A stretch of 63,985 nucleotides of DNA, counting the filler, from an uncultured Methanosarcinales archaeon (lineage in GTDB: Archaea; Nanobdellota; Nanobdellia; Woesearchaeales; CAZKBD01), in the NCBI GenBank assembly GCA_964550945.1. It is 7 parts of 7 records of this genome, joined end to end, with 100 filler letters (N's around TTAATTAATTAA, not from the genome) between each part and the next. Parts side by side here need not be neighbours in the genome. Positions count along the whole stretch, not along the records: positions 10,820 to 20,746 come from CAZKBD010000069.1; 6 more parts are not named here. The stretch is one strand, 5' to 3'. The notes under the pieces are model-generated. The model had not been told where the DNA came from. It made no database searches and was given only the letters and a program-made list of their open reading frames with translations. This document shows, in pieces, positions 10,820 through 24,732 of this stretch. Made by a program: the position numbers and the translations under genes. The first letter of the stretch is position 1. Every line of letters begins with the position of its first letter.

Positions 10820-11457
10820 GCTCCGTTTAATCCATAAGTATTACAAAAGTCATCTATCACTGCATGAGTTATCACAATCCCTTCTGGCTGGCCAATTCCG
10901 CTCTTTCTTGCCCAATACCTTTTTAATTCGCCTTCTAATTGGTCTCTTCCGTGTTGGTCAGGCAAAGGCTGCAAGTCGGTATTAAAATTAGTTCTCAATA
11001 AATAGCCTATTGTTAGTAATCTTTCAAAATCTCTTGTTTCTTCAGGTTTGACTCTGTATTGAATTACATAAACAACTCCTCGTGAATTTGTAGGATTTTC
11101 CTCTACCATCCTTCTTACAGTTTCAGGTGTGCCTAGGTCATATCCAGCTTCTTGACTCATTAGCCATTTCTGGGTTTCAATGTAACCCTTCATGAGCACT
11201 TCGCTTAATCCAGTCCATGCAGTATAACTAATGCAATCTGTGACCTCATCTGGCAGTTCTATACCGGGGTTAGTCATTTCAGCAAAAGGATCACTTATAC
11301 GAGGGCCAATGTCCTCTCCCCCCCTAGCTAAATTTGCAAGCAAAGAAACAGCATCTGGGCTAGCATTTCTATTCACAACAACATCTGCAATACCCAAAGC
11401 ATTTCTAACAGCAGTGCTTAATCGTCCAAACGTAACTCTTCCAAAATAATTTAGCAT
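10820..11457 (-). CDS. Hypothetical protein (3' truncated by contig end)
   Basis: Long ORF with upstream TTTTTATA box; no recognisable motif. Confidence 0.6.
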
Positions 11458-11568
11458 TTTGATTGTTGTGAATACAACTGGCTATAAAAATATTTCGTAA
11501 GCAGTTCATCTTGGCTAAACCCAGATTCAAAAGTAACATTTATAATTAAAACTTAATTCTTAGACTAA

Positions 11569-12837
11569 ATGACAAAAATCTACATTGAAACTTATGGCTG
11601 CTCATTAAACCAGTCAGACAGCGAGTTAATGGCAGGGCTGCTGAAAAAGGCGGATTTTGAGATAGTGGAAAATATAGAGGATGCTGATGTTCTTATTGTC
11701 AATAGCTGCACTGTCAAAGGGCCTACAGAGAATAAATTCTTTAAAAGGCTGGAAGAAATCAGAAAAAAACTTCCTGATAAAAAAATAATAATTGCAGGCT
11801 GTATCGCACAAACAGACTCTGAAAAATTAGAGGGTTATTCCCTGATTGGGCCTTATCAGATAAACAGAATCGTAGAGGTTGTTGAAGAGACGATAAACGA
11901 TAATATTGTCACATTAATTGCTGAAGAGAGAAATCCGAGGCTCAATATCCCTAAGATCAGGAGGAATAATCTTGTTGAGATCATACCGATATGCGCTGGC
12001 TGTTTGGGAGAGCCTTGCTCTTATTGCAAAGTAAAATCAGCAAGAGGGAGTCTGTTTTCTTATGACCGACAAGAGATAATAAAACAGGCAAAAAAGGCAA
12101 TAGAAGATGGCTGCAAGGAGATTTGGCTGACAGCACAGGATACTGGCTGTTATGGAAAAGACATCAACAGCTCGCTGCCAGAGCTGTTAAGAGAGGTTGT
12201 AAACATTGAAGGAGATTTTTTTGTAAGGATAGGGATGATGAATCCAAATCACGCAATGGGCTTTTTAGATGAGCTTATTGAAGCTTACAAAAACCCAAAA
12301 ATATTCAAATTTCTGCACATACCTGTGCAATCTGGAAATAATGCGATCCTTAAGCTGATGAAAAGAAGGTATAATGTAGAAGACTTTAGAAAAATAATCA
12401 ATGAATTCAGAAGCAGGCTGGACAATATAACGGTCTCAACTGATATAATATGTGGGTTTCCAACAGAGTCTGAGGGGCAGTTTAAGGATAGCTTAAACCT
12501 AATCAGAGAGATTAAGCCAGACGTGTTGAACATATCCCGATTCTGGCCAAGGCCAAAAACAGAGGCAGCTGAAATGGAAAATCAAATAGGGGGATGGGAG
12601 ACAAAAAGAAGGTCACAGCTGCTGGCTGATATTTTTAATAATATCTCCAGGATGAATAATGAGAGATGGATCAATTGGCAAGGAAGCATAATTATAGATG
12701 AAAAAGGGAAGGATGATAGTTTTGTAGGCAGAAATTTTGCATATAAGCCTGTTGTCGTTAAAGGAAATTATAAGATTGGAGATACTGTTGATGTTAAAAT
12801 CAGAACAGTAACAAGTTTTGATTTAAGGGCAGAATGA
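11569..12837 (+). CDS. tRNA t6A37 methylthiotransferase (MiaB-like, archaeal MtaB type)
   Basis: UPF0004 N-domain (ETYGCSLN, VNSCTVK, AGC), radical-SAM cysteines, C-terminal TRAM (GRNFAYKPVV). Confidence 0.9.
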   Translation: MTKIYIETYGCSLNQSDSELMAGLLKKADFEIVENIEDADVLIVNSCTVKGPTENKFFKRLEEIRKKLPDKKIIIAGCIAQTDSEKLEGYSLIGPYQINRIVEVVEETINDNIVTLIAEERNPRLNIPKIRRNNLVEIIPICAGCLGEPCSYCKVKSARGSLFSYDRQEIIKQAKKAIEDGCKEIWLTAQDTGCYGKDINSSLPELLREVVNIEGDFFVRIGMMNPNHAMGFLDELIEAYKNPKIFKFLHIPVQSGNNAILKLMKRRYNVEDFRKIINEFRSRLDNITVSTDIICGFPTESEGQFKDSLNLIREIKPDVLNISRFWPRPKTEAAEMENQIGGWETKRRSQLLADIFNNISRMNNERWINWQGSIIIDEKGKDDSFVGRNFAYKPVVVKGNYKIGDTVDVKIRTVTSFDLRAE

Positions 12838-13589
12838 GCAGCAGCATTAGTTTGTGCATGATTGTGAAGGACGAACAGCCTGTTTTAGGGGGATTTCTTA
12901 ATAACATAAAAGGTTTTGTTGATGAAATGATTGTTGTGGATACAGGAAGCAAGGATAGGACAAAGGAAATTGCGAAGAAATTTACAAATAAGGTTTACGA
13001 TTACAGATGGGATGATGATTTCAGCAAAGCAAGAAATTTTTCTATTGCTAAGGCTACTAACGAATGGATTTTGGTTTTAGATGCAGATGAGACAATAAAC
13101 AAAAGAGATTTGATAAAAATTAAAAAAATAATCAATAAGAAAAATAACCTTGCAGGCTATTCCTTCTTGCAAAGAACATATGTGAAAGAAGAACTTCCAT
13201 TTAAATTCAAAAAAATTAAAAATAGGCTATACAAAGGATACACTTTCAGGAGAATAACTCGGCTGTTTAAAAATAATAAAAGAATAAGGTTTGAATATCC
13301 TATCCATGAGACGGTGGTTAATTCAATAAGGCGGATTAATGGCAGGATTCAGCCATTGGATATAACTATTGACCACTTTCCTTTATCCAAAAGTAAAAAG
13401 GATACCAATAATAAAAACAAACTATATTTAAGATTATTAAAAAAGAAAATTAAAAACTATCCAGAAGCGAAGTTCTATTGCGAATTGGGTATGCAATATC
13501 TTTTGATGAAGAACAAAAAAGAGGCTAAGAAATATCTCTTAAAAGCTGCAGATCTGAACAGCCATTATAAGCAATTCCTCAACATTTAA
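12834..13589 (+). CDS. Glycosyltransferase family 2 with C-terminal TPR-like helix pair
   Basis: ISLCMIVKDE, VDTGSKDRT, DFSKARN, WILVLDADE and IHE motifs. Confidence 0.88.
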   Translation: MSSSISLCMIVKDEQPVLGGFLNNIKGFVDEMIVVDTGSKDRTKEIAKKFTNKVYDYRWDDDFSKARNFSIAKATNEWILVLDADETINKRDLIKIKKIINKKNNLAGYSFLQRTYVKEELPFKFKKIKNRLYKGYTFRRITRLFKNNKRIRFEYPIHETVVNSIRRINGRIQPLDITIDHFPLSKSKKDTNNKNKLYLRLLKKKIKNYPEAKFYCELGMQYLLMKNKKEAKKYLLKAADLNSHYKQFLNI

Positions 13590-13595
13590 TTGATA

Positions 13596-13922
13596 TCAAC
13601 TAAAATATATGTCAACATCCTCAGGAGTCAGCATAACTCCTTGTTTTGGATCATGCACCTTAATTGGAACTTTGTCAATCTTGCTCATTCCAAGGCCTTT
13701 TCTGAAATTGATATTTCCGCATCTTAAACATCTAAAGTAAGGCCCCCATTTTCCACTCATAACCTCTAATGATTCTCCGCAAGCACATTTTATATCTAGA
13801 ATCTCTTTATCTTTGTGGGTTAGGCAGACAGGCACTCCCTGCGGATTTCTTGCTATTGCCCTTTTTTCGCAGAAAGGGCAGCTCTCTATCTTAGATTCGC
13901 CGTATCTTTTAGGGATATACAT
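13596..13922 (-). CDS. Cys-rich (zinc-binding) hypothetical protein
   Basis: CPFC, CLTH, CACG and CLRC motifs. Confidence 0.7.
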   Translation of the reverse strand: MYIPKRYGESKIESCPFCEKRAIARNPQGVPVCLTHKDKEILDIKCACGESLEVMSGKWGPYFRCLRCGNINFRKGLGMSKIDKVPIKVHDPKQGVMLTPEDVDIYFS

Positions 13923-14662
13923 TATTTTATAGCTCCTTTTTGCCAGTCTTTTAGTATTGTTTTGGCCATCCTCATCGTGTCTGGAATGCCTCCTTTCTTG
14001 AGAGTGTTGCTTTTTAATGCAATCTCTTCGATAGTCTCTTCCTTGTCTTCTTTTTCCTTAACACCATAAAATGATTCGATCTTTCCAGGGAATCTCTCCA
14101 TAAGCCCCATAACAACCAAGTCTGGCTCTTTTGTTTTTACAAAATCAATTGTTCCTATAAAAGCATGCTTCATAAAATCTTTTTCCTGATAGGGTATCAC
14201 TCCTGGAGTGTCTATAAGCATTATGCGGTTATCTGCTTTTACGTTTTGAAGCCCTCTTGTATGGCCGCTTAAGCTGCTTGTTGATGCTGCTTTTCTTCCT
14301 TTCATCGCGTTTATAAGTGAGGATTTGCCTACATTAGGGTAGCCGAGAACTCCAACTCTAACTTCTTTTTTGCCTATCCTCTTTGCTTCTATCAGTATCT
14401 TCTCTCTGAGCATCTTTATTCCATGATGCTCTTTTGCAGATACAAACACTGCTAAACCAAGCTCTTTTTTGTGCTTTTCGACTTCAGCCTTATCAGCTAA
14501 ATCGCATTTGGTAATCACATAAATCAATGGCTTGTTCAAATACTTCACTTTGTCCTCGATCTCCTGGTTTCTTGTTTCATCTACCAACCGGGCATCTAAG
14601 GTCATCAGAAGTATATCTGCTTGTATTATTACCTTGTTCACCATTCTCCAAAAATTAGGCAT
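13922..14662 (-). CDS. Circularly permuted GTPase (YlqF/RbgA family)
   Basis: DAR, TKCD (G4) before GYPNVGKSS (G1) and DTPG (G3). Confidence 0.9.
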   Translation of the reverse strand: MPNFWRMVNKVIIQADILLMTLDARLVDETRNQEIEDKVKYLNKPLIYVITKCDLADKAEVEKHKKELGLAVFVSAKEHHGIKMLREKILIEAKRIGKKEVRVGVLGYPNVGKSSLINAMKGRKAASTSSLSGHTRGLQNVKADNRIMLIDTPGVIPYQEKDFMKHAFIGTIDFVKTKEPDLVVMGLMERFPGKIESFYGVKEKEDKEETIEEIALKSNTLKKGGIPDTMRMAKTILKDWQKGAIK

Positions 14663-14714
14663 TATTTATAAGATATTGATTTGGTTTATAATGGTTGCTA
14701 AAGAGCGCCTAGGA

Positions 14715-15452
14715 TTAATTAGAATGCTTCCACAATAATTCAAACCATTTTCTGTATGAATCTGCAATATCCTTGTTTATTATCATGAAACATAAGGGGT
14801 TATCTCCTTTCCATAGCACATTAACAACCCGGTCTGCATATATGTTGATCACTGTAGGGCTTGAGTATTCTTTTGGCAGGAACCTATACTCTTGTAGCGG
14901 TATTTTTGTTATTGGCTTATTCCTCACTTCATAATCAAATAATAATCTTTGTTTTATTCCGGCTTTTACCCTTAGTTTAGTGAAGTTAGGAAAAAAATAT
15001 TTTAAAGCGGAATCTTCTTTGCCTACAGCGCCAAGCAAATAAAGATCCTTGCCTTGTTTTAGGACATCTTTCCTCATTGTCTTAAATCCTTCTTTTCCGT
15101 GTAAAACATGCGCTTCTGCATGGGGCTTTAATGGAGAGATATGCTTTTTTAACTCGGGAATGATCTTTTTGATCGAATCTTCTTTTTCATTTAGTTTTTG
15201 TTTTTGCTCTTCCATGTATGCAATCAGGTTATCAGGGTCTGCCGCTTCAAAGTATTTTATGTTGTTCTTGATCACATAGCTAACTAATCCCTTATCTGAC
15301 AGTCTGTTTATTGCTTCATATACCCGGCTTCTATGGAGAGAAAGCTCTCTCATTAATTCTCCTACTCTTATAGAGCCTGTTTTAAGCAATGTGGTGTAAA
15401 CATTTATTTCGCTGTTTGCCAGGCCTATTTCCTGGAATAGTTTTTGATCCAT
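14715..15452 (-). CDS. TrmB family transcriptional regulator
   Basis: GLANSEINVYTTLL...HRSRVYEAINRL..KGLVSY HTH; FE.LWK C-terminus; ATG at 15452 follows a TATA box. Confidence 0.88.
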   Translation of the reverse strand: MDQKLFQEIGLANSEINVYTTLLKTGSIRVGELMRELSLHRSRVYEAINRLSDKGLVSYVIKNNIKYFEAADPDNLIAYMEEQKQKLNEKEDSIKKIIPELKKHISPLKPHAEAHVLHGKEGFKTMRKDVLKQGKDLYLLGAVGKEDSALKYFFPNFTKLRVKAGIKQRLLFDYEVRNKPITKIPLQEYRFLPKEYSSPTVINIYADRVVNVLWKGDNPLCFMIINKDIADSYRKWFELLWKHSN

Positions 15453-15566
15453 AAGTGAAGTAATACGTTGAGATATATAAACTTTATGGTGTAGTCTTTT
15501 TAAAGGAGGACAAACCTTTATTAATAAGGACAAATCCACTAGATGTAGTTATTATTGAGTGATAAA

Positions 15567-15674
15567 ATGAAAACAACAAAAAGTAACGAAACTGAAATTT
15601 ATGGCGAATATCTGGAGCTTACCCAGCGTAAGTCGTTAGAACTCTATGACTGGTTTGAATTATTTGACAAATGA
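15567..15674 (+). CDS. 35-aa peptide MKTTKSNETEIYGEYLELTQRKSLELYDWFELFDK
   Basis: ATG preceded by SD-like GAGTGA; first ORF of the operon divergent from trmB. Confidence 0.5.
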   Translation: MKTTKSNETEIYGEYLELTQRKSLELYDWFELFDK

Positions 15675-15718
15675 GATGATGGTTTAGACTAATCAATTAA
15701 TTAAACAAAGGTGAGACT

Positions 15719-16582
15719 ATGGCAAATGACCAAACAAATCAAGAATACAACAGTTGTGTAATGTGCGCAGGAAATGTGCAAAGAAGCAATGTAATTTATG
15801 CAACAACATTCAAACGAATGGCTTCTTCAAATCCAGGAGCTCTACAGTGGTTTTCTATGGACAGAGCAGGCTCAAGAGTGCCTTATCTGCTTGCAGGAGC
15901 ATTGGAAGGCTCAGACTTGAAGGCTATGGGAAACATATTTGGCGCAGCAGGGAAGATGAATATTAGAGGTTATGATGCTCAAATTGTAACTGAAGTGAGT
16001 GAACTCTTCAAAGCAGACAAAGATAATTTTCCGATTGTGTTTGGACAATTAGCAGCTGACAAGCAAGTGGAAGCTCGTAGAGCATTTGTTGGATTAAGAG
16101 CTGAAGTTCACAGGACAGCTTATGAAAGGGCGTGTACTGCACTTGCAAATGAAGGAATTGACTCTCAATGGATTCCTGTGAATTTTAATAACCCACTCGA
16201 CACATCAAAGGGTTATCCCCTCATATTAGTAGCAGAAAAAGCTCTTGAAAAAGATGTAAGGAAAAGATATTATGATGGAGCGCAAACTGGCCAAGCAACT
16301 CCAGTAAACCAATTTATTTCTCATCCTGAGACATTTAGCGTTGAAATAAACCCCTTGGAAAAAATGGTTAACGCACCTGAAATTGTAGCAGTTGCAGAAT
16401 TGCCTCGCCTTGTTGAAGAAGCAATTCCTGAAGGCTCAATCTGGCAGGCATTAGGAACAATTAAAGACAATGTTGCAGCCACAGTTGAAGAGATGCAACA
16501 GACAGTAAGGCTATTCAAAGAGGCATCTCCAGAAATGGTTAGAATAGTTCTTGACTATGCAAACAGAAGCAGGGGTTGCTAG
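15719..16582 (+). CDS. Divergent low-molecular-weight phosphatase (LMW-PTP/ArsC-like) with insertion
   Basis: N-terminal P-loop VMCAGNVQRS (CxxNxxRS); C-terminal IKD in the expected general-acid position; GGTGA SD. Confidence 0.6.
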   Translation: MANDQTNQEYNSCVMCAGNVQRSNVIYATTFKRMASSNPGALQWFSMDRAGSRVPYLLAGALEGSDLKAMGNIFGAAGKMNIRGYDAQIVTEVSELFKADKDNFPIVFGQLAADKQVEARRAFVGLRAEVHRTAYERACTALANEGIDSQWIPVNFNNPLDTSKGYPLILVAEKALEKDVRKRYYDGAQTGQATPVNQFISHPETFSVEINPLEKMVNAPEIVAVAELPRLVEEAIPEGSIWQALGTIKDNVAATVEEMQQTVRLFKEASPEMVRIVLDYANRSRGC

Positions 16583-16664
16583 AACTAAAAATTATTTTTT
16601 TATTTTAATTATGACAATCAAATCCGTTGGTGTATAGTATGATATGTAAAAATAAGGTGAACAA

Positions 16665-17822
16665 ATGTCAGAAGAATCAGCTTCAGAAGGAGAGGAAAAT
16701 GAGGACTCAACTAGGGACAAGGAAGACGGAGACCAAGGTAGTGAAGGTTCTCAGCAAGAGTTAGATAATGATGAAGCTGAAAACCGAACAAGTAAACCTG
16801 AAGCAAAAAGATCAGAAAAACAGCATTCTAAAAAACCCGCAAGTCAGAGCAGACAATCTCTTGAAAGATTAACTGATAGCGGAGATTTATCTTCTGAACT
16901 TGAGAGAGCAATAGAAATGCTTTCGCAAGATCCTGACTCATTATCTGACCCAGAGAGAAGGGAGATAGGAAGGATTTTCTCGAAATATTTTGACAGGGGA
17001 GAGATAGAACTAGAGGGAGTTTGTAATGCAAACGGAGGAAGAAGTCCAGTAATACAGGTAATGTTGTATGATCTGTTAGCTAAGTATGGCATAAGCGCCT
17101 ATTTCACAATAACTTCAAGCGGTTCAAAATTGAATGCTGTGAAAACAAGAGAACTGCCAGGAGCGTTCAAGGCGAATATCATCAGAAAAGGAGTAAAGTA
17201 CAATAACGCAGTAAGGCAAATCTTAACAGCTGAAGAACTAGGAGAAGCGAAATATATCCTGGAACAATTAAGTTCAGCTGGAGATGATAAAGACCAAATC
17301 AACAGTATATACAAATCGAACCCTAAACTTAGAGGCCTTATTGACAAGATTGATAGGATATGCATAAGGGCGATGCATACTGATGAAGCAAGAACAAGGG
17401 ATATAGTCCTAAACGGGATGGGGCTTTATGGTATCTTGTTTGGTTGTTATTACAAAGGGAACGTCCCAGCAGAAGTCTTTCCTGGATTTTATGGTAATAG
17501 GATGCAGACTCAAGCCAGCGCAACAACAATCTACATTGCATCACAAAAATCCAATGCCACCGAGATCATTGAGATCTGTAAAAAATCAGGAGTTGACGAT
17601 CCAACTATCTACATAATAGATATAGAAGACGCGCTTGGAGGCTCAGACCAGACCTACAAAGCGACATTTACAGAGATAAGAGCACAATTAACTGCAAAAC
17701 TACCGACTATGGTCCATAACTATGCGCTATCTGTGGCTCGTAGACCTAATGTAGCATGCTCTAATACAATCCAATTAGGCGCATACAGAGACAGCACTAG
17801 ATCTGCACTGAGGGCAGCTTGA
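16665..17822 (+). CDS. Divergent LMW-PTP-like phosphatase with acidic N-terminal extension
   Basis: VCNANGGRSP P-loop, downstream ITSSG strand, DIEDALGGSDQTY resembling the DIxDP loop. Confidence 0.68.
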   Translation: MSEESASEGEENEDSTRDKEDGDQGSEGSQQELDNDEAENRTSKPEAKRSEKQHSKKPASQSRQSLERLTDSGDLSSELERAIEMLSQDPDSLSDPERREIGRIFSKYFDRGEIELEGVCNANGGRSPVIQVMLYDLLAKYGISAYFTITSSGSKLNAVKTRELPGAFKANIIRKGVKYNNAVRQILTAEELGEAKYILEQLSSAGDDKDQINSIYKSNPKLRGLIDKIDRICIRAMHTDEARTRDIVLNGMGLYGILFGCYYKGNVPAEVFPGFYGNRMQTQASATTIYIASQKSNATEIIEICKKSGVDDPTIYIIDIEDALGGSDQTYKATFTEIRAQLTAKLPTMVHNYALSVARRPNVACSNTIQLGAYRDSTRSALRAA

Positions 17823-17840
17823 TCAAAAGAGTGATATCTT

Positions 17841-19271
17841 ATGACAAGATTTTTCCTTCATGCAGCTGGTGAACAGCCAATAAACAAACATTTTATCCAT
17901 ATGGAGAGGCACCTATACAACCAGGACATCATCGGCTGCAGCCAAAGAGAGATTATTGTCTCGGCGCAACGAGGTTATGGCAACATCTATTGGTCATACG
18001 ACGATATAAAAAGACTTCACAAAGAAAGTGAGAATCTTCTTGATCCAAAAATAGCAAAGAAACTATTAGATGAATGCCAAAAAAAGGCGGATAATTATTG
18101 GAAGACAGCAAACCAGGTTTTAGGTAAACTAGACAATCATGTACAAAGATATGAATTAGCCAGCTTATATGACCAGTATATGCCTGCCATGAAAGACGCG
18201 CTGATCTATTTTATTACGATTTCTGACAAGATGACCTTTGCAGCAGAAGAACATCTCAAGCAAATCATAAGCAGCAAATTCCCTGATAATCCAGATGAAG
18301 TTTTCATATTGCTGACAACAAGCGCTGAGCCTGATTTGCTTTACGAAGAACTTAGGGATTGGTTAATATTGATTGAAAATCCTGATAAAGATAGAATTAT
18401 CCAACACACAAGGAAATATCCAATCCTGCTCCCCAATACATTTTCACAAGAACAGGCACTAACCTGGGCGTATAATCGCATAAAAGGAAAAAAAACCACT
18501 GTCGAGATCAGAAAAACAATCTCAGAGTCAGATACTAAACGAGAACAGCTAAAAAAAAGACAAAGTGAGATTCTTAATGAGCTGGACTCGATTAAGGCAG
18601 AACAACTTTCATGGTTTATCAGTAAAGCGTCTTTGGTCAGGTTGCTTCTGAAAGCCTGCTGGAATGGCGAAGCGTATTACATGCTGCCCCTGTATGAAAA
18701 AATTGCTAAGATAGCTAAATGTTCAATCAAAGACATTTATATGTTTTATACTTGGAGGGATATTAATGTTCTTTTGCATAATAACATCAATTTGTCAAAG
18801 ACGACTCTTGGAAAACGTAAGGAGCATTACCTTATGCATTATGTAAACTGGAAAATAATGATTTATGAAGGTGAAAAAGCATTAGGCGTTAAAAAATGGA
18901 TTTTAGATATAAATTTGCCCGATAAAACAATTACTTCTTTTTCAGGGAGGGTTGCAAATAAGGGCAAAGTGACAGGTAAAGTGAAATTAGTAAAAAGCGA
19001 CAATCCTGCAGTATTTCAAGAGATTGCAAACTCATTGACCAAAGAGCATATATTAGTCACTGGTATGACAAATCCTGCAATGATGGTTCTTATTGATAAA
19101 GTTAAAGGAATAATCACTGATGAAGGAGGCATAGCTAGCCATGCTGCAATTATCTCCAGAGAGTTAGGCATTCCATGCGTGGTTGGAACAAAAATAGCTA
19201 CAGAGGTGCTTAATGAGGGGGAGATAATAGAGCTAGATGCTGACAATGGAATCATTAAAAGAATAAAATGA
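17841..19271 (+). CDS. PEP-utilizing enzyme mobile (phospho-His swivel) domain fused to a large helical N-terminal domain
   Basis: ILVTGMTNP and ITDEGGIASHAAIISRELGIPCVVG with the catalytic His. Confidence 0.88.
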   Translation: MTRFFLHAAGEQPINKHFIHMERHLYNQDIIGCSQREIIVSAQRGYGNIYWSYDDIKRLHKESENLLDPKIAKKLLDECQKKADNYWKTANQVLGKLDNHVQRYELASLYDQYMPAMKDALIYFITISDKMTFAAEEHLKQIISSKFPDNPDEVFILLTTSAEPDLLYEELRDWLILIENPDKDRIIQHTRKYPILLPNTFSQEQALTWAYNRIKGKKTTVEIRKTISESDTKREQLKKRQSEILNELDSIKAEQLSWFISKASLVRLLLKACWNGEAYYMLPLYEKIAKIAKCSIKDIYMFYTWRDINVLLHNNINLSKTTLGKRKEHYLMHYVNWKIMIYEGEKALGVKKWILDINLPDKTITSFSGRVANKGKVTGKVKLVKSDNPAVFQEIANSLTKEHILVTGMTNPAMMVLIDKVKGIITDEGGIASHAAIISRELGIPCVVGTKIATEVLNEGEIIELDADNGIIKRIK

Positions 19272-19984
19272 TAAAAGACCTGAGAGAGATTAATAGATGG
19301 GAAGTCGATCAATTTGGAGGTAAGGCCACTAATCTAGGTTTCTTAATCCAAAACGGATTTAATGTGCCCAAAGGTTTTTGCATTTCAACAGCTATTAGTG
19401 AGATACCTAATGAAATTAAAAAAGAGGTTTATAGAAGATTTCAACTATTGGATTCTGCTGTCTCTGTGAGGAGTTCGGCAACATGTGAAGACTCTGAAAA
19501 ATTAAGTTTTGCCGGCCAATTTGACACTTTTCTTAATATTAACACCAAGGAACAATTGTATGAATCTATTCAAAAATGCTGGGATTCTATAAATTCAGAT
19601 AGGGTAAAAATATACTTGAGGCGTAGGGGTATCCCTATTGTTAAGATGGCTGTGATAATTCAAAAAATGATCGACGCCGATATCTCCGGCATACTATTCA
19701 CTTTAGATCCAGTTAACAAAAAGCATATCTTGATAGAAGCTGCACATGGATCAGGAGATAATATAGTGTCAGGTAGGATAACCCCCAGCAACTTTCTGGT
19801 GAGGCATGATTTTAGTATTGTTAGCCAAAAAAATGATTATAACATTGATGAAGAGCTTGTAAAGGAAATTGCTAAGATAGGCATAAAGATAGAAAATCTT
19901 TACAAAAAGCCACAAGACGTAGAGTTTGCTGTCAAGAATAAAGAAATATTTATCCTGCAAAGCAGAGCCATTACCAATTTATAA
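19268..19984 (+). CDS. Stand-alone PPDK_N/PEP-synthase-type ATP-grasp domain
   Basis: GGKATNLG, VRSSATCEDS..SFAGQFDT and PQDVEFA...ILQSRAIT motifs; ATGA overlap with the previous gene. Confidence 0.9.
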   Translation: MIKDLREINRWEVDQFGGKATNLGFLIQNGFNVPKGFCISTAISEIPNEIKKEVYRRFQLLDSAVSVRSSATCEDSEKLSFAGQFDTFLNINTKEQLYESIQKCWDSINSDRVKIYLRRRGIPIVKMAVIIQKMIDADISGILFTLDPVNKKHILIEAAHGSGDNIVSGRITPSNFLVRHDFSIVSQKNDYNIDEELVKEIAKIGIKIENLYKKPQDVEFAVKNKEIFILQSRAITNL

Positions 19985-20003
19985 CCTAAGAATTAGAATC
20001 AGA

Positions 20004-20408
20004 TTACCTTCGGCTATCAAATTTGACAAAGAACCTTTTTTTATTCTCAAACCTTGATTCAATGTTGTTCATGAATCCAAAAAGTTTAGCCATTATCTTA
20101 TCTAATTTTGCAAACAAATTTGAGTACTCCCTTTTGGTTATATAACCTAAGTCTTTTGACATGCTAATCAGCACATCAAGTTCTTTTGCAGAGCCATAAG
20201 CATAACTTAAAAAGTTCAGAAATTCGCGGGGAGACTTCTTTACACTCCCTTCTGCGATATTAAGCGGAATTGAAGTTGCTGCTCTTCTCATTTGGGAAGA
20301 AATGTTAGCTTCTTCCTTTTTAGGAAACTTATCCAATATCCTGTGAATGTCAAGGGCAAAAGCATAGCCTAGCTGGTAAACCTCCATGTTCTTGTACATT
20401 CTGGACAT
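20004..20408 (-). CDS. Four-helix bundle protein (23S rRNA IVP-like family)
   Basis: FPKKE...SQMRRAATSIPLNIAEG...FL..AYGSAKEL signature. Confidence 0.9.
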   Translation of the reverse strand: MSRMYKNMEVYQLGYAFALDIHRILDKFPKKEEANISSQMRRAATSIPLNIAEGSVKKSPREFLNFLSYAYGSAKELDVLISMSKDLGYITKREYSNLFAKLDKIMAKLFGFMNNIESRFENKKRFFVKFDSRR

Positions 20409-20564
20409 GGGGCTAGAGAATTGTGTTCACCTTAAATAATTTATGCTGGGTTCAGAATCTGGCCAGAGCTATCGCTATGTGATTGTTAATGGAAGAATAT
20501 AGTTAACACTAATTCTTTAGTCAATCAAAGAAAAAAAAGAAAAAATAATATGAAAGACCAACAT

Positions 20565-20746
20565 AGACAAGTTATGAACGATTGGAGATCGCATGCTGAA
20601 CATGTCGCCGAAGCTTCATGCTTACACACCGATTCCATTAAACCCCTGTTTTTGGGGAGTTCTATGATGTTTCTTTTTCAAGGCAGGTTTCGTGCTTAGA
20701 TGCTTTCAGCACTTATCCCTTAAAGCGTAGCTGTCCGACATACCTT
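20565..20746 (-). rRNA. 23S rRNA, 3' end (partial; 3' boundary approximate)
   Basis: Reverse complement contains GGATAAGTGCTGAAAGCATCTAAGCACGAA, conserved near the LSU rRNA 3' end; contig breaks here. Confidence 0.9.
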
Positions 20747-21515: not shown

Positions 21516-23222
21516 TTATCCAATATACCCTTTTTTATAGTATTTTGTATGCAATAATTTATGCGCTTTCTCTGATCCTGGCTCTCCCAGATATTCCCTA
21601 TACAATTTTAGTGCTGTTGGGTTTTTGTGAGATTTCCTTATTTGTTTTCCTTCATCTACCTGTATAAGCGCTTGTGTTCTCTTTGCTAAAGTCTCTTTAT
21701 TATGCGGAGGAGGCTGGCCACCGCCACCAATGCAGCCGCCATAGCAAGCCATTATCTCAATAAAATGATATGGGCTTTTTCCTGCTTTTATTTGCTCCAG
21801 TAATTTTCTTGCAGCTCCCATTGTATGCACGACACATATCCTAATTTTTTGACCAGCTATATCAACCTCTGCTTCTTTTATTTCCTGCATGCCCCTTATG
21901 CCATTATAGTCGATTTGCTGCAAGTCTTTTCCTGTAAGCCAGTCTGCTGCTGTCCTTAAGGCAGCTTCCATCACTCCACCGGTATGGCCAAATATGTCGC
22001 CTGCTCCTGTACTAAACCCAAGAGGGTCGTCAAAGTCTGAATCTGGCAGATTTTTGAAATCAACATTCAATTCTTTCAATAGTTTAGCTAACTCAACTGT
22101 GGTAAGCACATAATCAGCTTCCCCGTTAAATTCAGGCCGCAAGATTTCGTATTTTTTTGCAGTACAGGGCATGATATCCACTAAAATAATGTCTTTTGGA
22201 TCCTTATTGATTTTCTTCGCATAATATGTTTTTATGAGAGAAGCCAAAATAGCCTGAGGACTTCTGCATGTGGACATGTGCTTATTTATTTCCTCATAAT
22301 AAAACTGCTCACCAAATTTTATCCATGCAGGGCAGCAAGTTGTGATCATAGGCAATACCTGTTTTTCTTTTAGCCTCTTCACAAATTCAGTGGCTTCTTC
22401 AACTATGCAGATATCTGCTCCAAAGTTAGTGTCAAAGACATTATCAAAGCCTATTTGTTTCAATGCTGTTACCATCTTTCCAGTAACTGGTGTGCCTGCC
22501 GGGAAACCAAATAATTCACCAATGGTTGCCCTTATTGAAGGGGCAGTTTGCGCAATCAGATATTTGTTTGAATTCAGCGCATCAATTACTTCCTGGATGC
22601 TGCTTCTTTCTGTCAAAGCTCCGGATGGACAGGCAACAACACATTGGCCGCAGTTAATGCAAGAGCTTTCTTTCATGGTATGGCCAAAAGCCGGGCTTAC
22701 CCTTGTATTGACGCCACGCTTTGTCAAACCAATTGCATATACAGTCTGGATATCATTGCAGACCCTTACACATTGCTCGCATAGGATGCATTTATTGTTG
22801 TCTCTTCTTATCGAAACGCTTGAGTTGTCTATTTCGTCTTTTCTAATTAATCCCTCAAATATTGTATCTTCTATCATTAATTCAGAGGCATATTTTTGCA
22901 CCTTGCACAATAAGTTTTCCTTGCAGGTTGTGCAATTAAGGCTGTGGTTTGCCAGCAACAGCTGCATATTCATCCTTCTTGCTTCAAGGACTCTGGGAGT
23001 ATGAGTGCTAATCTCCATACCTCCCCTAACAGGCGTGCAACATGAAGCATGTAATTTATCTATGCCCTGGATCTCCACGACACATATGCGGCATGCGCCT
23101 ATTCTTTCCAGCCTGTGATTATAACAAAAATGAGGTATATCAATGCCATTTCTCTCAGCAACATCAATAATGTATTCCCCTTCTGTTGCCTCAACTTCCT
23201 GATCATTTATCTTCAGTTTCAT
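21516..23222 (-). CDS. hydA: [FeFe]-hydrogenase group A catalytic subunit
   Basis: H-cluster motifs TTCCPAW, MPCTAKKYE, EIMACYGGCIGGGGQP; N-terminal [2Fe-2S], His-ligated [4Fe-4S] and 2x[4Fe-4S] motifs. Confidence 0.95.
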   Translation of the reverse strand: MKLKINDQEVEATEGEYIIDVAERNGIDIPHFCYNHRLERIGACRICVVEIQGIDKLHASCCTPVRGGMEISTHTPRVLEARRMNMQLLLANHSLNCTTCKENLLCKVQKYASELMIEDTIFEGLIRKDEIDNSSVSIRRDNNKCILCEQCVRVCNDIQTVYAIGLTKRGVNTRVSPAFGHTMKESSCINCGQCVVACPSGALTERSSIQEVIDALNSNKYLIAQTAPSIRATIGELFGFPAGTPVTGKMVTALKQIGFDNVFDTNFGADICIVEEATEFVKRLKEKQVLPMITTCCPAWIKFGEQFYYEEINKHMSTCRSPQAILASLIKTYYAKKINKDPKDIILVDIMPCTAKKYEILRPEFNGEADYVLTTVELAKLLKELNVDFKNLPDSDFDDPLGFSTGAGDIFGHTGGVMEAALRTAADWLTGKDLQQIDYNGIRGMQEIKEAEVDIAGQKIRICVVHTMGAARKLLEQIKAGKSPYHFIEIMACYGGCIGGGGQPPPHNKETLAKRTQALIQVDEGKQIRKSHKNPTALKLYREYLGEPGSEKAHKLLHTKYYKKGYIG

Positions 23223-24313
23223 TTTAATTCTTTTTTGAAATGTTTTAATTCAGTAAAAACATGATTTGCGCAACTCTGCCCTAATCCGCACAAAGAGGTA
23301 TCTCTAATTACAGTTGATAATTTCTCCAGTAGTGCCAAATCATTTGATTTTCCTGATTTGACCTTTAATAATAGGTTTAGGAGATGGATATTGCCTTCTC
23401 TGCAAGGGGTGCATTTGCCACATGACTCATGCTTAAAGAACTCAGCTATGTTGATAGCCAGGTCCAGTATGCTCTTGCCTTTACCAACAAAAATCAGTGA
23501 ACACGAGCCTAGCATGGCTCCTTCTTTAGCAACATTCTCCGGATTAATGATAAAATTTGAGCTGTAAGGTATGCAACCGCCTGAAGCGCCAAAATAGACT
23601 GCTTTGGGATTCTTTGCATTTGAAAGCTTGGCAATCTCTCCTAAAGTTATGCCCACCCTCAGTTCATAAACTCCTGGCTTGGAAACATCGCCAGATATGG
23701 AAAAAAGGCGTAAATCATTATCTAATGTTTCATTGACAATAGATATTGGGACATTAGCCAATGTTTCAACATTGTGTATCACAGTGGGTTTGCCAAACAG
23801 GCCTTTTTGTGGAGGGTATGGCGGCTTAAAACTAGGATAGCCTCTTTTGTTTTCAATTGAAGATATAATGGCTGTTTCATCACCGCAAATATACGCTCCT
23901 GCTCCTTCGACAATATCTATCTTAATGCCTGTGCCAGCTCTCTCAAGAATGTCTTTAATTGTTTTTTCCAAATGGCCTTTTAGGCAAGAGTATTCCCCTC
24001 TTAGGTAGATGTATGCTTGCTTAGCTCCCACAGCCCAGGCTGCTATTAGTATGCCTTCAATTACTGTTTCAGGATTATTTTCTAACAAAAATTTGTCTTT
24101 AAAAGTCCCCGGTTCGCCTTCATCTGCATTGCAGATTACAAATTTTTCATCTGACTGAGTATTTTTTGCCAACTCCCACTTCAATCCTGCTGCGAAATTA
24201 GCTCCTCCGCGGCCCCTCAGATTAAAATTTTTTAAGTGGTTTATAACTCCTTCTGCGCTCCATTGCTGAGCTTTGCGCCAGCCTACTAAATTTGATTTTT
24301 GTAAGAGCCTCAT
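23219..24313 (-). CDS. hydB: NuoF-like flavin/NADH-binding hydrogenase subunit (short form)
   Basis: LRGRGGA, CNADEGEPGTFKD, GAGAYICGDET and ESCGKCTPCREG motifs. Confidence 0.92.
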   Translation of the reverse strand: MRLLQKSNLVGWRKAQQWSAEGVINHLKNFNLRGRGGANFAAGLKWELAKNTQSDEKFVICNADEGEPGTFKDKFLLENNPETVIEGILIAAWAVGAKQAYIYLRGEYSCLKGHLEKTIKDILERAGTGIKIDIVEGAGAYICGDETAIISSIENKRGYPSFKPPYPPQKGLFGKPTVIHNVETLANVPISIVNETLDNDLRLFSISGDVSKPGVYELRVGITLGEIAKLSNAKNPKAVYFGASGGCIPYSSNFIINPENVAKEGAMLGSCSLIFVGKGKSILDLAINIAEFFKHESCGKCTPCREGNIHLLNLLLKVKSGKSNDLALLEKLSTVIRDTSLCGLGQSCANHVFTELKHFKKELK

Positions 24314-24732
24314 TTTAGCAGTTTTCTAAGATTTTCTTTTGTAATATTTCCTATTAACTCCTCATTGATCATAATGGCAGGAGCCTTATCACAGCAGCCG
24401 ATGCATGACGTCAACTCAAGAGTGAACTTACCATTTTTAGTTGTCTGACCGATATCAATGCCTAAAATCTTCTTTGCCTCGTTTAGGATATTCAGAGAAC
24501 CATTTAGATAACAAGAAGGGCTGTTGCATATTCTAACAACATTCTTGCCTTTTTTCTTTTCACTTAGCATTGAATAGAATGTTGCAGCAGAATAAATCTC
24601 TACCAGCGGAACATTTATTTTTTTGGAAAGCTCGGTTATCTTCTTTTCAGGCAGGCAACCATACGTTCTTTGAATATTTTTCAGAATATTAAGAAGATTA
24701 TCTCTCTTCACCTCTTTTTTTTCTTCAATCAC
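24310..24732 (-). CDS. hydC: NuoE-like [2Fe-2S] hydrogenase subunit
   Basis: ATFYS, CNSPSC and CIGCCDKAP motifs. Confidence 0.92.
   Translation of the reverse strand: MIEEKKEVKRDNLLNILKNIQRTYGCLPEKKITELSKKINVPLVEIYSAATFYSMLSEKKKGKNVVRICNSPSCYLNGSLNILNEAKKILGIDIGQTTKNGKFTLELTSCIGCCDKAPAIMINEELIGNITKENLRKLLK

Follow-up and report, generated by a model that had tools for sequence, protein, structure and literature searches.

An operon in a 63,985-nucleotide stretch of DNA from an uncultured small archaeon of symbiotic type, in the Woesearchaeales (assembly GCA_964550945.1; the whole stretch is called the window below) is real and encodes a putative phosphorylation system, in which two coupled genes appear to encode the halves of a dikinase of known kind, and in which the gene before them encodes a predicted phosphatase of low-molecular-weight protein tyrosine phosphatase (LMW-PTP) fold whose link to the dikinase is ancient and retained. 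The window consists of seven contigs joined by runs of N, and the operon lies entirely within contig G000:C69 (window 10820-20746), G000 being the source genome (1.97 Mb, 92% complete). Four open reading frames (ORFs) and a divergent regulator gene are the subject of the analysis:

14715..15452, minus strand: trmB, encoding a TrmB-family regulator (Pfam TrmB, E 4.9e-14) of 245 residues if counted from the likely ATG, divergent from the operon.
15719..16582, plus strand: ORF1 (P0001), 287 residues, a remote LMW-PTP-fold candidate; P-loop CAGNVQRS at C16-S23; IKD at 248-250, with D250 as candidate acid loop.
16665..17822, plus strand: ORF2 (P0002), 385 residues, an acidic N-terminal tail and then a putative insertion-type LMW-PTP; CNANGGRS at 120-127; IED at 320-322.
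17841..19271, plus strand: ORF3 (P0003), 476 residues, a substrate-binding domain like that of rifampin phosphotransferase (RPH) and a C-terminal His swivel (H434); PEP-utilizers, E 1e-24; AlphaFold and Foldseek.
19268..19984, plus strand: ORF4 (P0004), 238 residues, a compact stand-alone ATP-grasp donor with its own stop codon (Pfam PPDK_N, E 1.9e-58).

An initial annotation had described this layout, namely two ORFs each with a CxxNxxRS P-loop and a C-terminal IxD, followed by a swivel protein and a coupled stand-alone ATP-grasp protein, all co-oriented and divergent from trmB, and the layout is confirmed at the coordinates above.

ORF3 and ORF4 as a putative two-component dikinase

Structure prediction and homology indicate that ORF3 and ORF4 constitute a two-component dikinase of the HpeHI/PpsAB kind, to which phosphotransfer is assigned by homology. 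All six of the best Foldseek matches to the AlphaFold model of ORF3 (pLDDT 93.7; 60-sequence alignment) are RPH (E 1e-13 to 3e-11; TMq 0.53-0.56), and ORF3 residues 1-476 superpose on RPH residues 327-867, that is, on the rifampin-binding domain and the swivel (VIA Z 18.7-18.9; root-mean-square deviation 5.2-5.4; 411-416 residues aligned). The swivel motif T/SxxGGxxxH is present (T426, G429, G430, H434), and its His is invariant in all 97 ORF3-like proteins aligned (97/97; "acceptors" below, with ORF4-like proteins as "donors"). Profile alignment places R267 and K271 at the positions of RPH R666 and K670, and L268 at that of E667; in RPH, the substitutions Arg666Ala and Glu667Ala each abolish the second phosphate transfer (PMC4844700). 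At the columns aligned with the RPH REYPK motif, 69 of the 97 acceptors have R/K and 61 have K/R, and the residue at the middle position is mostly Asp or non-acidic. The ORF4 residues GGK, RSS, FAGQ, E219 and Q231/R233 are invariant across eight stand-alone donors, and ORF4 has a deletion of ~43 residues in common with the donor of a paralogous module in the same genome (contig C2; see below). Foldseek, superposition and profile alignment thus bear out the proposal, made in the initial annotation, that the split dikinase is RPH-like. The RPH family model NF041857 scores 51 and 168 bits here against a cut-off of 999, and the protein is split over two chains where the model describes one. In a Pfam scan neither chain contains the pyruvate-binding domain of phosphoenolpyruvate (PEP) synthase or pyruvate phosphate dikinase, and neither matches a carbohydrate-binding module at E up to 1; a separate 803-residue frame of PEP-synthase size is found elsewhere in the genome, on contig C46.

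The start of ORF4 overlaps the end of ORF3 by ATGA, the arrangement of translational coupling. A frameshift artefact was considered as the source of the split and rejected: a public contig, X1, matches window 18999-20314 across the junction without difference (it possibly comes from the source sample and hence is not independent), and the C2 paralogue is split likewise with ATGA. Natural fusions keep the same order, acceptor first and donor last: in an 816-residue protein (G076:C30), a stretch of 472 residues matches ORF3 at 47% identity and the part after it matches ORF4 at 38%, and frames of 743 residues (G099) and 794 residues (G116) are arranged in the same way. The split form itself is already in print for HpeHI, CreHI and PpsAB (PMC12167813).

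ORF2 and its phosphatase family

That ORF2 has an LMW-PTP fold is well supported by profile comparison. The Pfam model LMWPc matches ORF2 at E 4e-4, below its cut-off; a profile of 14 shorter family proteins finds it at E 1.2e-28; and the ORF2-family profile, compared with the PDB, has YwlE as best match (E 1.8e-15) and aligns with YwlE and LMW-PTPs in two pieces flanking an insertion of ~75 positions. Among 79 family members, the loop C-x2-N-x-G-R-S is kept in 77, its Arg in 97%, and the Glu and Arg that close the insertion in 97% and 91%; the P-loop Cys is the only invariant Cys. In ORF2, the alignments identify the key residues as C120-N123-R126-S127, the family-conserved E241/R245, and the general-acid residue D322. 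Clusters in the Atlas carry LMWPc at 0.80-0.81, which we treat as a lead only. Homologues of ORF2 comprise three strong matches among 50% representatives and weaker ones in 13/400 other genomes, and no relative was confirmed on viral contigs. One contig (L122:19-1443; G004:C34) encodes a tandem pair of divergent family phosphatases, and no acceptor was found in that genome.

The C..N..RS motif occurs in 6/3657 ORFs of the source genome, two of them with the motif at internal positions and unrelated-looking, and a CxxNxxRS motif beside a true LMW-PTP is rarer than chance would predict. A third CxxNxxRS protein of the genome, of 104 residues (G000:C27 2360-2674), has no dikinase alongside.

Conserved pairing of phosphatase and acceptor

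The phosphatase/acceptor pairing recurs within the genome and beyond it. On contig C2 (15135-18670; L001), a paralogous module comprises a divergent trmB, an LMW-PTP, an acceptor (whose frame has a few N) and a donor; the phosphatase is of canonical length (CGNNKGRS; LMWPc E 2e-8) and keeps the general-acid Asp, and the donor is 56% identical to ORF4 and again overlaps the acceptor by ATGA. These two loci hold two of the four strong TrmB-like genes of the genome (eight at E 1e-4). A GTDB-wide motif scan returned 40 loci, 33 of which encode members of the ORF2 family (in six of these, the protein is one of the seed sequences again). An acceptor gene lies within the fetched flanks of 29/33 family phosphatases versus 0/7 other motif matches, and two exceptions are at contig ends. 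Counted by genome, acceptors are present in 33/35 genomes with a phosphatase versus 68/366 without, an association whose Fisher p of 7e-20 is overstated, kin not being independent. A co-oriented acceptor comes immediately after 26 of 42 distinct phosphatases, and a divergent trmB immediately before 16 of them.

In a tree of 106 acceptor domains, phosphatase adjacency requires 11 changes versus a shuffled minimum of 20. FastTree places 28/29 phosphatase-adjacent acceptors in one clade of 41, and IQ-TREE places 29/29 in one clade of 43-46 of the 106 (SH-aLRT 86-94); 15 of the 19 acceptors in the subclade of ORF3 (support 99-100) are phosphatase-adjacent, all supports being quick-tree supports. 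These trees show the link between phosphatase and acceptor as one ancient, retained partnership, not repeated independent ones.

The initial annotation had named a wrong fold, a CX5R loop not conserved in homologues, and a failure of phosphatase and dikinase genes to co-occur as counting against its proposal, and none of the three was found: the loop is kept in 4/4 ORF1-clade and 77/79 ORF2-family proteins, and the genes co-occur at the C2 locus, at 29/33 loci and in 33/35 genomes. Its views that the substrate is shared and that two phosphatases belong to the design are left unsupported, most loci having one phosphatase.

One donor for many acceptors

A profile of the acceptor N-terminal domain matches 101/401 genomes of the order (this tally, and the 68/366 derived from it, include four unpublished genomes, G374, G205, G207 and G209, that no other claim uses). 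Among 201 genomes sampled from the phylum, all 13 matches fell in the same order. A search with ORF3 of 60 relatives revealed large expansions in some genomes, above all in G041 (26/26 scored matches; 54 candidates). Contig G041:C3 carries 22 swivel genes in ~33 kb, together with one stand-alone donor, one trmB and one family phosphatase, and 20 acceptors of this array have a mean identity of 15% in their N-terminal domains versus 51% in their swivels. Donors were surveyed in 41 genomes chosen for having a phosphatase or acceptors. A stand-alone donor frame (240-350 residues) is present in 27/41, one each and two in the source genome; six have only fused frames of more than 1000 residues, two have only acceptor-donor fusions, and in six no dedicated donor was identified. 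In most relatives a single donor accompanies as many as 22 tandem acceptors, and some have multi-module chains of up to 2815 residues. Because acceptor and donor genes score best against PEP synthase models, the system is hidden by annotation.

Further observations concern these chains and the neighbours of the modules. Giant chains of repeated acceptors, some led by one ATP-grasp domain, are found at L044:5323-13767, L046:8310-14960, L047:1103-6025 and G167:C37 (a 4201-residue frame), and a weak ATP-grasp match (G295:C1 72128-72556) lies within an open frame of 13,972 residues. At L071, L083, L086 and L089, phosphatase/acceptor modules are inserted beside a DnaK-like gene, with a recurrent HD-type gene of ~208 residues coming next. 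Proteins with an N-terminal RHG motif recur beside arrays (L037:6005-6820, L038:10838-11203, L063:1703-2500, L069:484-1179, L094:5224-6150 and L106:5362-6156); they have no Pfam or NCBIfam match at the thresholds used and possibly have a histidine-phosphatase fold.

Predicted complex of ORF2 and ORF3

Complex prediction with ORF3 and ORF2 residues 70-358 (three runs, three controls) gave ipSAE values of 0.73, 0.74 and 0.00 (median 0.73), versus 0.00 for the best control. The ipSAE mark used is reached by 116/157 solved versus 2/215 mismatched pairs, counts that are only roughly valid for the alignments used here. At least 2% of contacts are common to the runs, and partner pLDDT is 85 or more. 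The confident interface comprises ORF3 residues 26-28, 95-115 and 306-316 and ORF2 residues 135-145 and 246-265; it excludes ORF2 C120-S127 and ORF3 H434 and R267/K271, that is, both active sites. The prediction supports docking of ORF2 on ORF3, not catalysis by either on the other. We know of no solved complex of like kind.

ORF1 as a remote candidate

ORF1 probably belongs to the LMW-PTP-fold family, as a remote and weakly supported member. The CxxNxxRS motif is kept in 4/4 proteins of its clade (ORF1 and three homologues), and the ORF1 motifs stand in the same order as in the ORF2 family. A 12-sequence profile built without the ORF1 clade finds the protein P0011 at E 1.3e-5 and ORF1 at E 1.4e-3, the next unrelated ORF scoring 0.11. 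With three smaller leave-out profiles of the four, ORF1 is not significant. A 14-sequence profile gives 4.1 bits on ORF1, beaten by 9/2000 shuffles. Global hhalign gives 19.5, above 25/25 decoys, but at a probability of 8.8%, and further hhalign probabilities are 1.2% and 6.6%. BLASTP of ORF1 against ORF2 gives E 0.34, ORF1 has no match in Pfam or NCBIfam, and an Atlas search gave no usable match. The LMW-PTP fold that the initial annotation proposed for both proteins holds for ORF2 (profile E 1.2e-28; YwlE) and is not secured for ORF1 (pLDDT 48.8; profile E 1.4e-3).

In G048, the gene directly before the closest ORF3 homologue matches an ORF1 profile (E 2e-6), and a CSANVQRS protein is encoded directly upstream of the G076 acceptor-donor fusion. 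Two metagenome loci with ORF1 homologues lack an upstream trmB, and both break off before the next gene. Another ORF1 homologue (L066:624-1517) has an in-frame stop after residue 203, and is a pseudogene or an assembly error.

Other features of the locus

15567..15674, plus strand: a 35-residue ORF between trmB and ORF1, found by translation, with a plausible ribosome-binding site and possibly spurious.
20004..20408, minus strand: a four-helix-bundle gene of the 23S rRNA IVP family, convergent on the operon.
21516..24732: three co-oriented genes on contig C70, which we take to resemble a group A3 electron-bifurcating FeFe hydrogenase set.

ORF1 and ORF2 (15719-17822) have a G+C content of 41%, higher than the genome value of 36.6% and the 35-37% of ORF3 and ORF4. 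A promoter and terminator scan of a type ill-suited to archaea gave matches at chance level.

Possible function

The best reading, which we hold tentatively, is that the operon encodes a dedicated kinase/phosphatase pair acting on one phospho-target. By analogy with RPH and HpeHI, ORF4 would bind ATP and load its beta-phosphate onto ORF3 His434, with release of AMP and Pi, and the swivel would then move to the RPH-type pocket of ORF3 and phosphorylate a hydroxyl of the bound target. ORF2, and probably ORF1, would be Cys-dependent phosphatases that dock on this acceptor subfamily and remove the phosphate again, with the helical insertion of the phosphatase serving as a specificity cap. The divergent TrmB would most likely sense the target or its phospho-form and induce the operon. 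In relatives, a single donor would serve numerous acceptors whose pockets differ, and the phosphatase-adjacent clade alone would be accompanied by an LMW-PTP. Characterised two-component dikinase members make aryl phosphates, in a pathway that contains a phosphatase (PMC12167813; PMC12624787), and we therefore favour a hydroxylated small molecule, perhaps an aryl one, as likeliest target; it would be held in phosphoester form and set free when needed.

Several results weigh against a dedicated kinase/phosphatase pair. The Glu667 position is acidic in 0/29 phosphatase-adjacent acceptors versus 34/77 others. In the general-acid column, whose Asp has a catalytic role in LMW-PTPs (PMC7822160), 47 of the 79 phosphatases have Asn and only 16, among them ORF2, have Asp. 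In one complex run out of three the ipSAE was 0.00; the interface residues show no conservation between families, and part of the interface lies in an insert specific to the ORF2 clade. ORF1, with a model pLDDT of 48.8 from a 4-sequence alignment, has a best Z of 5.8 in a wide fold search and no clear fold match. Seven loci have a phosphatase without a nearby acceptor (L058, L070, L102, L122, L125, L131 and L136), and 68 acceptor-positive genomes have no phosphatase match. Finally, no third enzyme recurs beside the module in neighbour clustering (with Pfam run on 73/190 neighbours), so that a kinase and a phosphatase alone would make a futile cycle unless regulated.

The acid losses are the reason to consider a rather unlikely alternative, an ATP-driven His-to-Cys phosphorelay in which ORF4 would charge His434, His434 would charge the Cys of an LMW-PTP-fold carrier, and the phosphate would be passed on as in enzyme IIB of the phosphotransferase system (PTS). 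In the family-wide version, which we also doubt, one donor would charge many swivels, and one clade, its catalytic acid lost, would hand phosphate to a docked Cys carrier. The absence of a Glu667 equivalent from paired acceptors, the Asn at the general-acid position together with the new near-invariant Glu/Arg pair, and the ORF2-ORF3 prediction, which reached its mark, are all consistent with a relay, and there are precedents in the IIB P-loop Cys, which takes phosphate from His (PMC4916401), and in the comparison of subdomains of the RPH substrate domain with EIIA and HPr (PMC4844700). However, the confident interface leaves out C120-S127, H434 and R267/K271; the P-loop Arg, absent from IIB, is retained; and ORF2 and the C2 paralogue retain the general-acid Asp. 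Moreover, the acid loss is a property of a clade, the trait differing in ~0.5 of 9 independent pairs, and a correlation of phosphatase adjacency with acceptor acid loss is left unsupported by such pairs. Nor do the missing Glu667 equivalent and the Asp-to-Asn change vary together on independent branches.

We consider it quite unlikely that the target is a protein, with ORF3 phosphorylating a Tyr or Arg that ORF2 dephosphorylates, or with ORF2 resetting the swivel phospho-His and so gating the dikinase. Proteins are the substrates of LMW-PTP and YwlE, the family has its best PDB match in YwlE, and the arrays attract RHG-motif proteins (RH[GA] near the N-terminus in 6/190 module neighbours) and HAD hydrolases. 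Yet a resetter of the swivel would be expected beside any acceptor, whereas the phosphatase pairs with one clade; a phosphatase for a swivel phospho-Thr is disfavoured in that only 5/29 paired acceptors have the regulatory Thr at position -2 from the His; and characterised RPH-fold pockets take small molecules.

A detoxification or resistance-like kinase repertoire, with phosphatases that are co-regulated but act independently (arsenate and unrelated phosphoesters being conceivable substrates), is very unlikely. RPH is the closest solved fold, the pockets diversify strongly (15% versus 51% swivel identity in 20 array members), and two thirds of acceptor-positive genomes have no phosphatase match, but against these stand the clade-specific adjacency, the positive complex prediction, and the score of the RPH family model, far below cut-off. 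Thioredoxin-coupled ArsC has two further conserved redox cysteines. The family here has a single invariant Cys, so there is no ArsC redox pair, and identity with thioredoxin-coupled ArsC is not supported.

The idea that ORF3 is a non-catalytic sensor or regulator like Haloferax PspR, an RPH-like protein that acts as a repressor (PMC10948481), with the phosphatase-fold proteins as binding subunits, would accommodate the lost Glu667 equivalent, the Asp-to-Asn change in many phosphatases, and docking away from both active sites, but is highly improbable given the His in 97/97 acceptors, the basic residue at the Arg666 position in 29/29 paired acceptors, the intact donor motifs, and the P-loop retained in 77/79 phosphatases.

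Significance and relation to known systems

The kind of enzyme is known, and what appears to be new, in that it was not found in the literature searched, is the dedicated LMW-PTP partner, the phosphatase family with its insertion, the permuted fusions, and the arrays with a single donor. Within the coverage of that search, which lay outside subscription journals, no description of any of the four was found, and a term search of the excerpted text of a Woesearchaeota genomics paper (PMC8421398) did not find the system. A quarter of the sampled genomes of the order (101/401) carry acceptors, and some devote more than 30 kb to arrays despite their small size. The locus in the window is a minimal self-contained kit of regulator, phosphatases, a single acceptor and a single donor, and the genome also holds an intact paralogue of it; therefore the function of the whole family is testable with four soluble proteins. 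A kinase/phosphatase pair, if that is what the operon encodes, would be a reversible small-molecule switch on the RPH scaffold, and new; a relay would be a PTS-like His-to-Cys cascade made from dikinase parts and run by ATP, and equally new, no such cascade being known from these archaea.

Glucan water dikinase is opposed by glucan phosphatases of the CX5R type. The operon resembles that system in opposing a dikinase with a putative Cys-dependent phosphatase, but the phosphatase here is of predicted LMW-PTP fold rather than of the dual-specificity type, and ORF3 and ORF4 have no carbohydrate-binding module; the likeness to glucan water dikinase drawn in the initial annotation is a poorer fit than RPH and HpeHI. 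Cellobiose-type PTS enzyme IIB has a P-loop Cys that could, as here, take phosphate from a His carrier, but is without the P-loop Arg (PMC4916401), which is kept in 97% of the family here, and no permease, EI or HPr gene was found among the module neighbours scanned. LMW-PTP and the arginine phosphatase YwlE (PDB 1ZGG, 4KK3) share with the family the C-x2-N-x2-R-S loop, the SG motif that follows it, and the C-terminal acid loop and helix; the family here differs in its insertion of ~75 residues ending in a near-invariant E-x3-R, in a loop that ends N-x-G-R-S, in the Asn at the general-acid position in 47/79, and in its tie to dikinase acceptors.

The closest parallels are on the dikinase side. 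RPH-Lm (PDB 5FBT/5FBU/5HV1; PMC4844700) corresponds to ORF3 over residues 327-867, including equivalents of Arg666, Lys670 and the swivel His, and differs in that the protein here is split or permuted, with the acceptor in front and the ATP-grasp domain at the end, has Leu for Glu667, and is 13-17% identical. HpeHI, CreHI and PpsAB (PMC12167813) have, like the operon, a separate ATP-grasp subunit, a subunit with an RPH-like binding domain and C-terminal His swivel, the T/SxxGGxxxH motif, and no pyruvate domain, HpeH being of about 71 kDa where ORF3 has 476 residues. In contrast to those systems, no carboxylase or catabolic genes recur near the module here; its partner is instead an LMW-PTP-fold protein, and among its relatives a single donor is shared by many acceptors and multi-module fusions occur.

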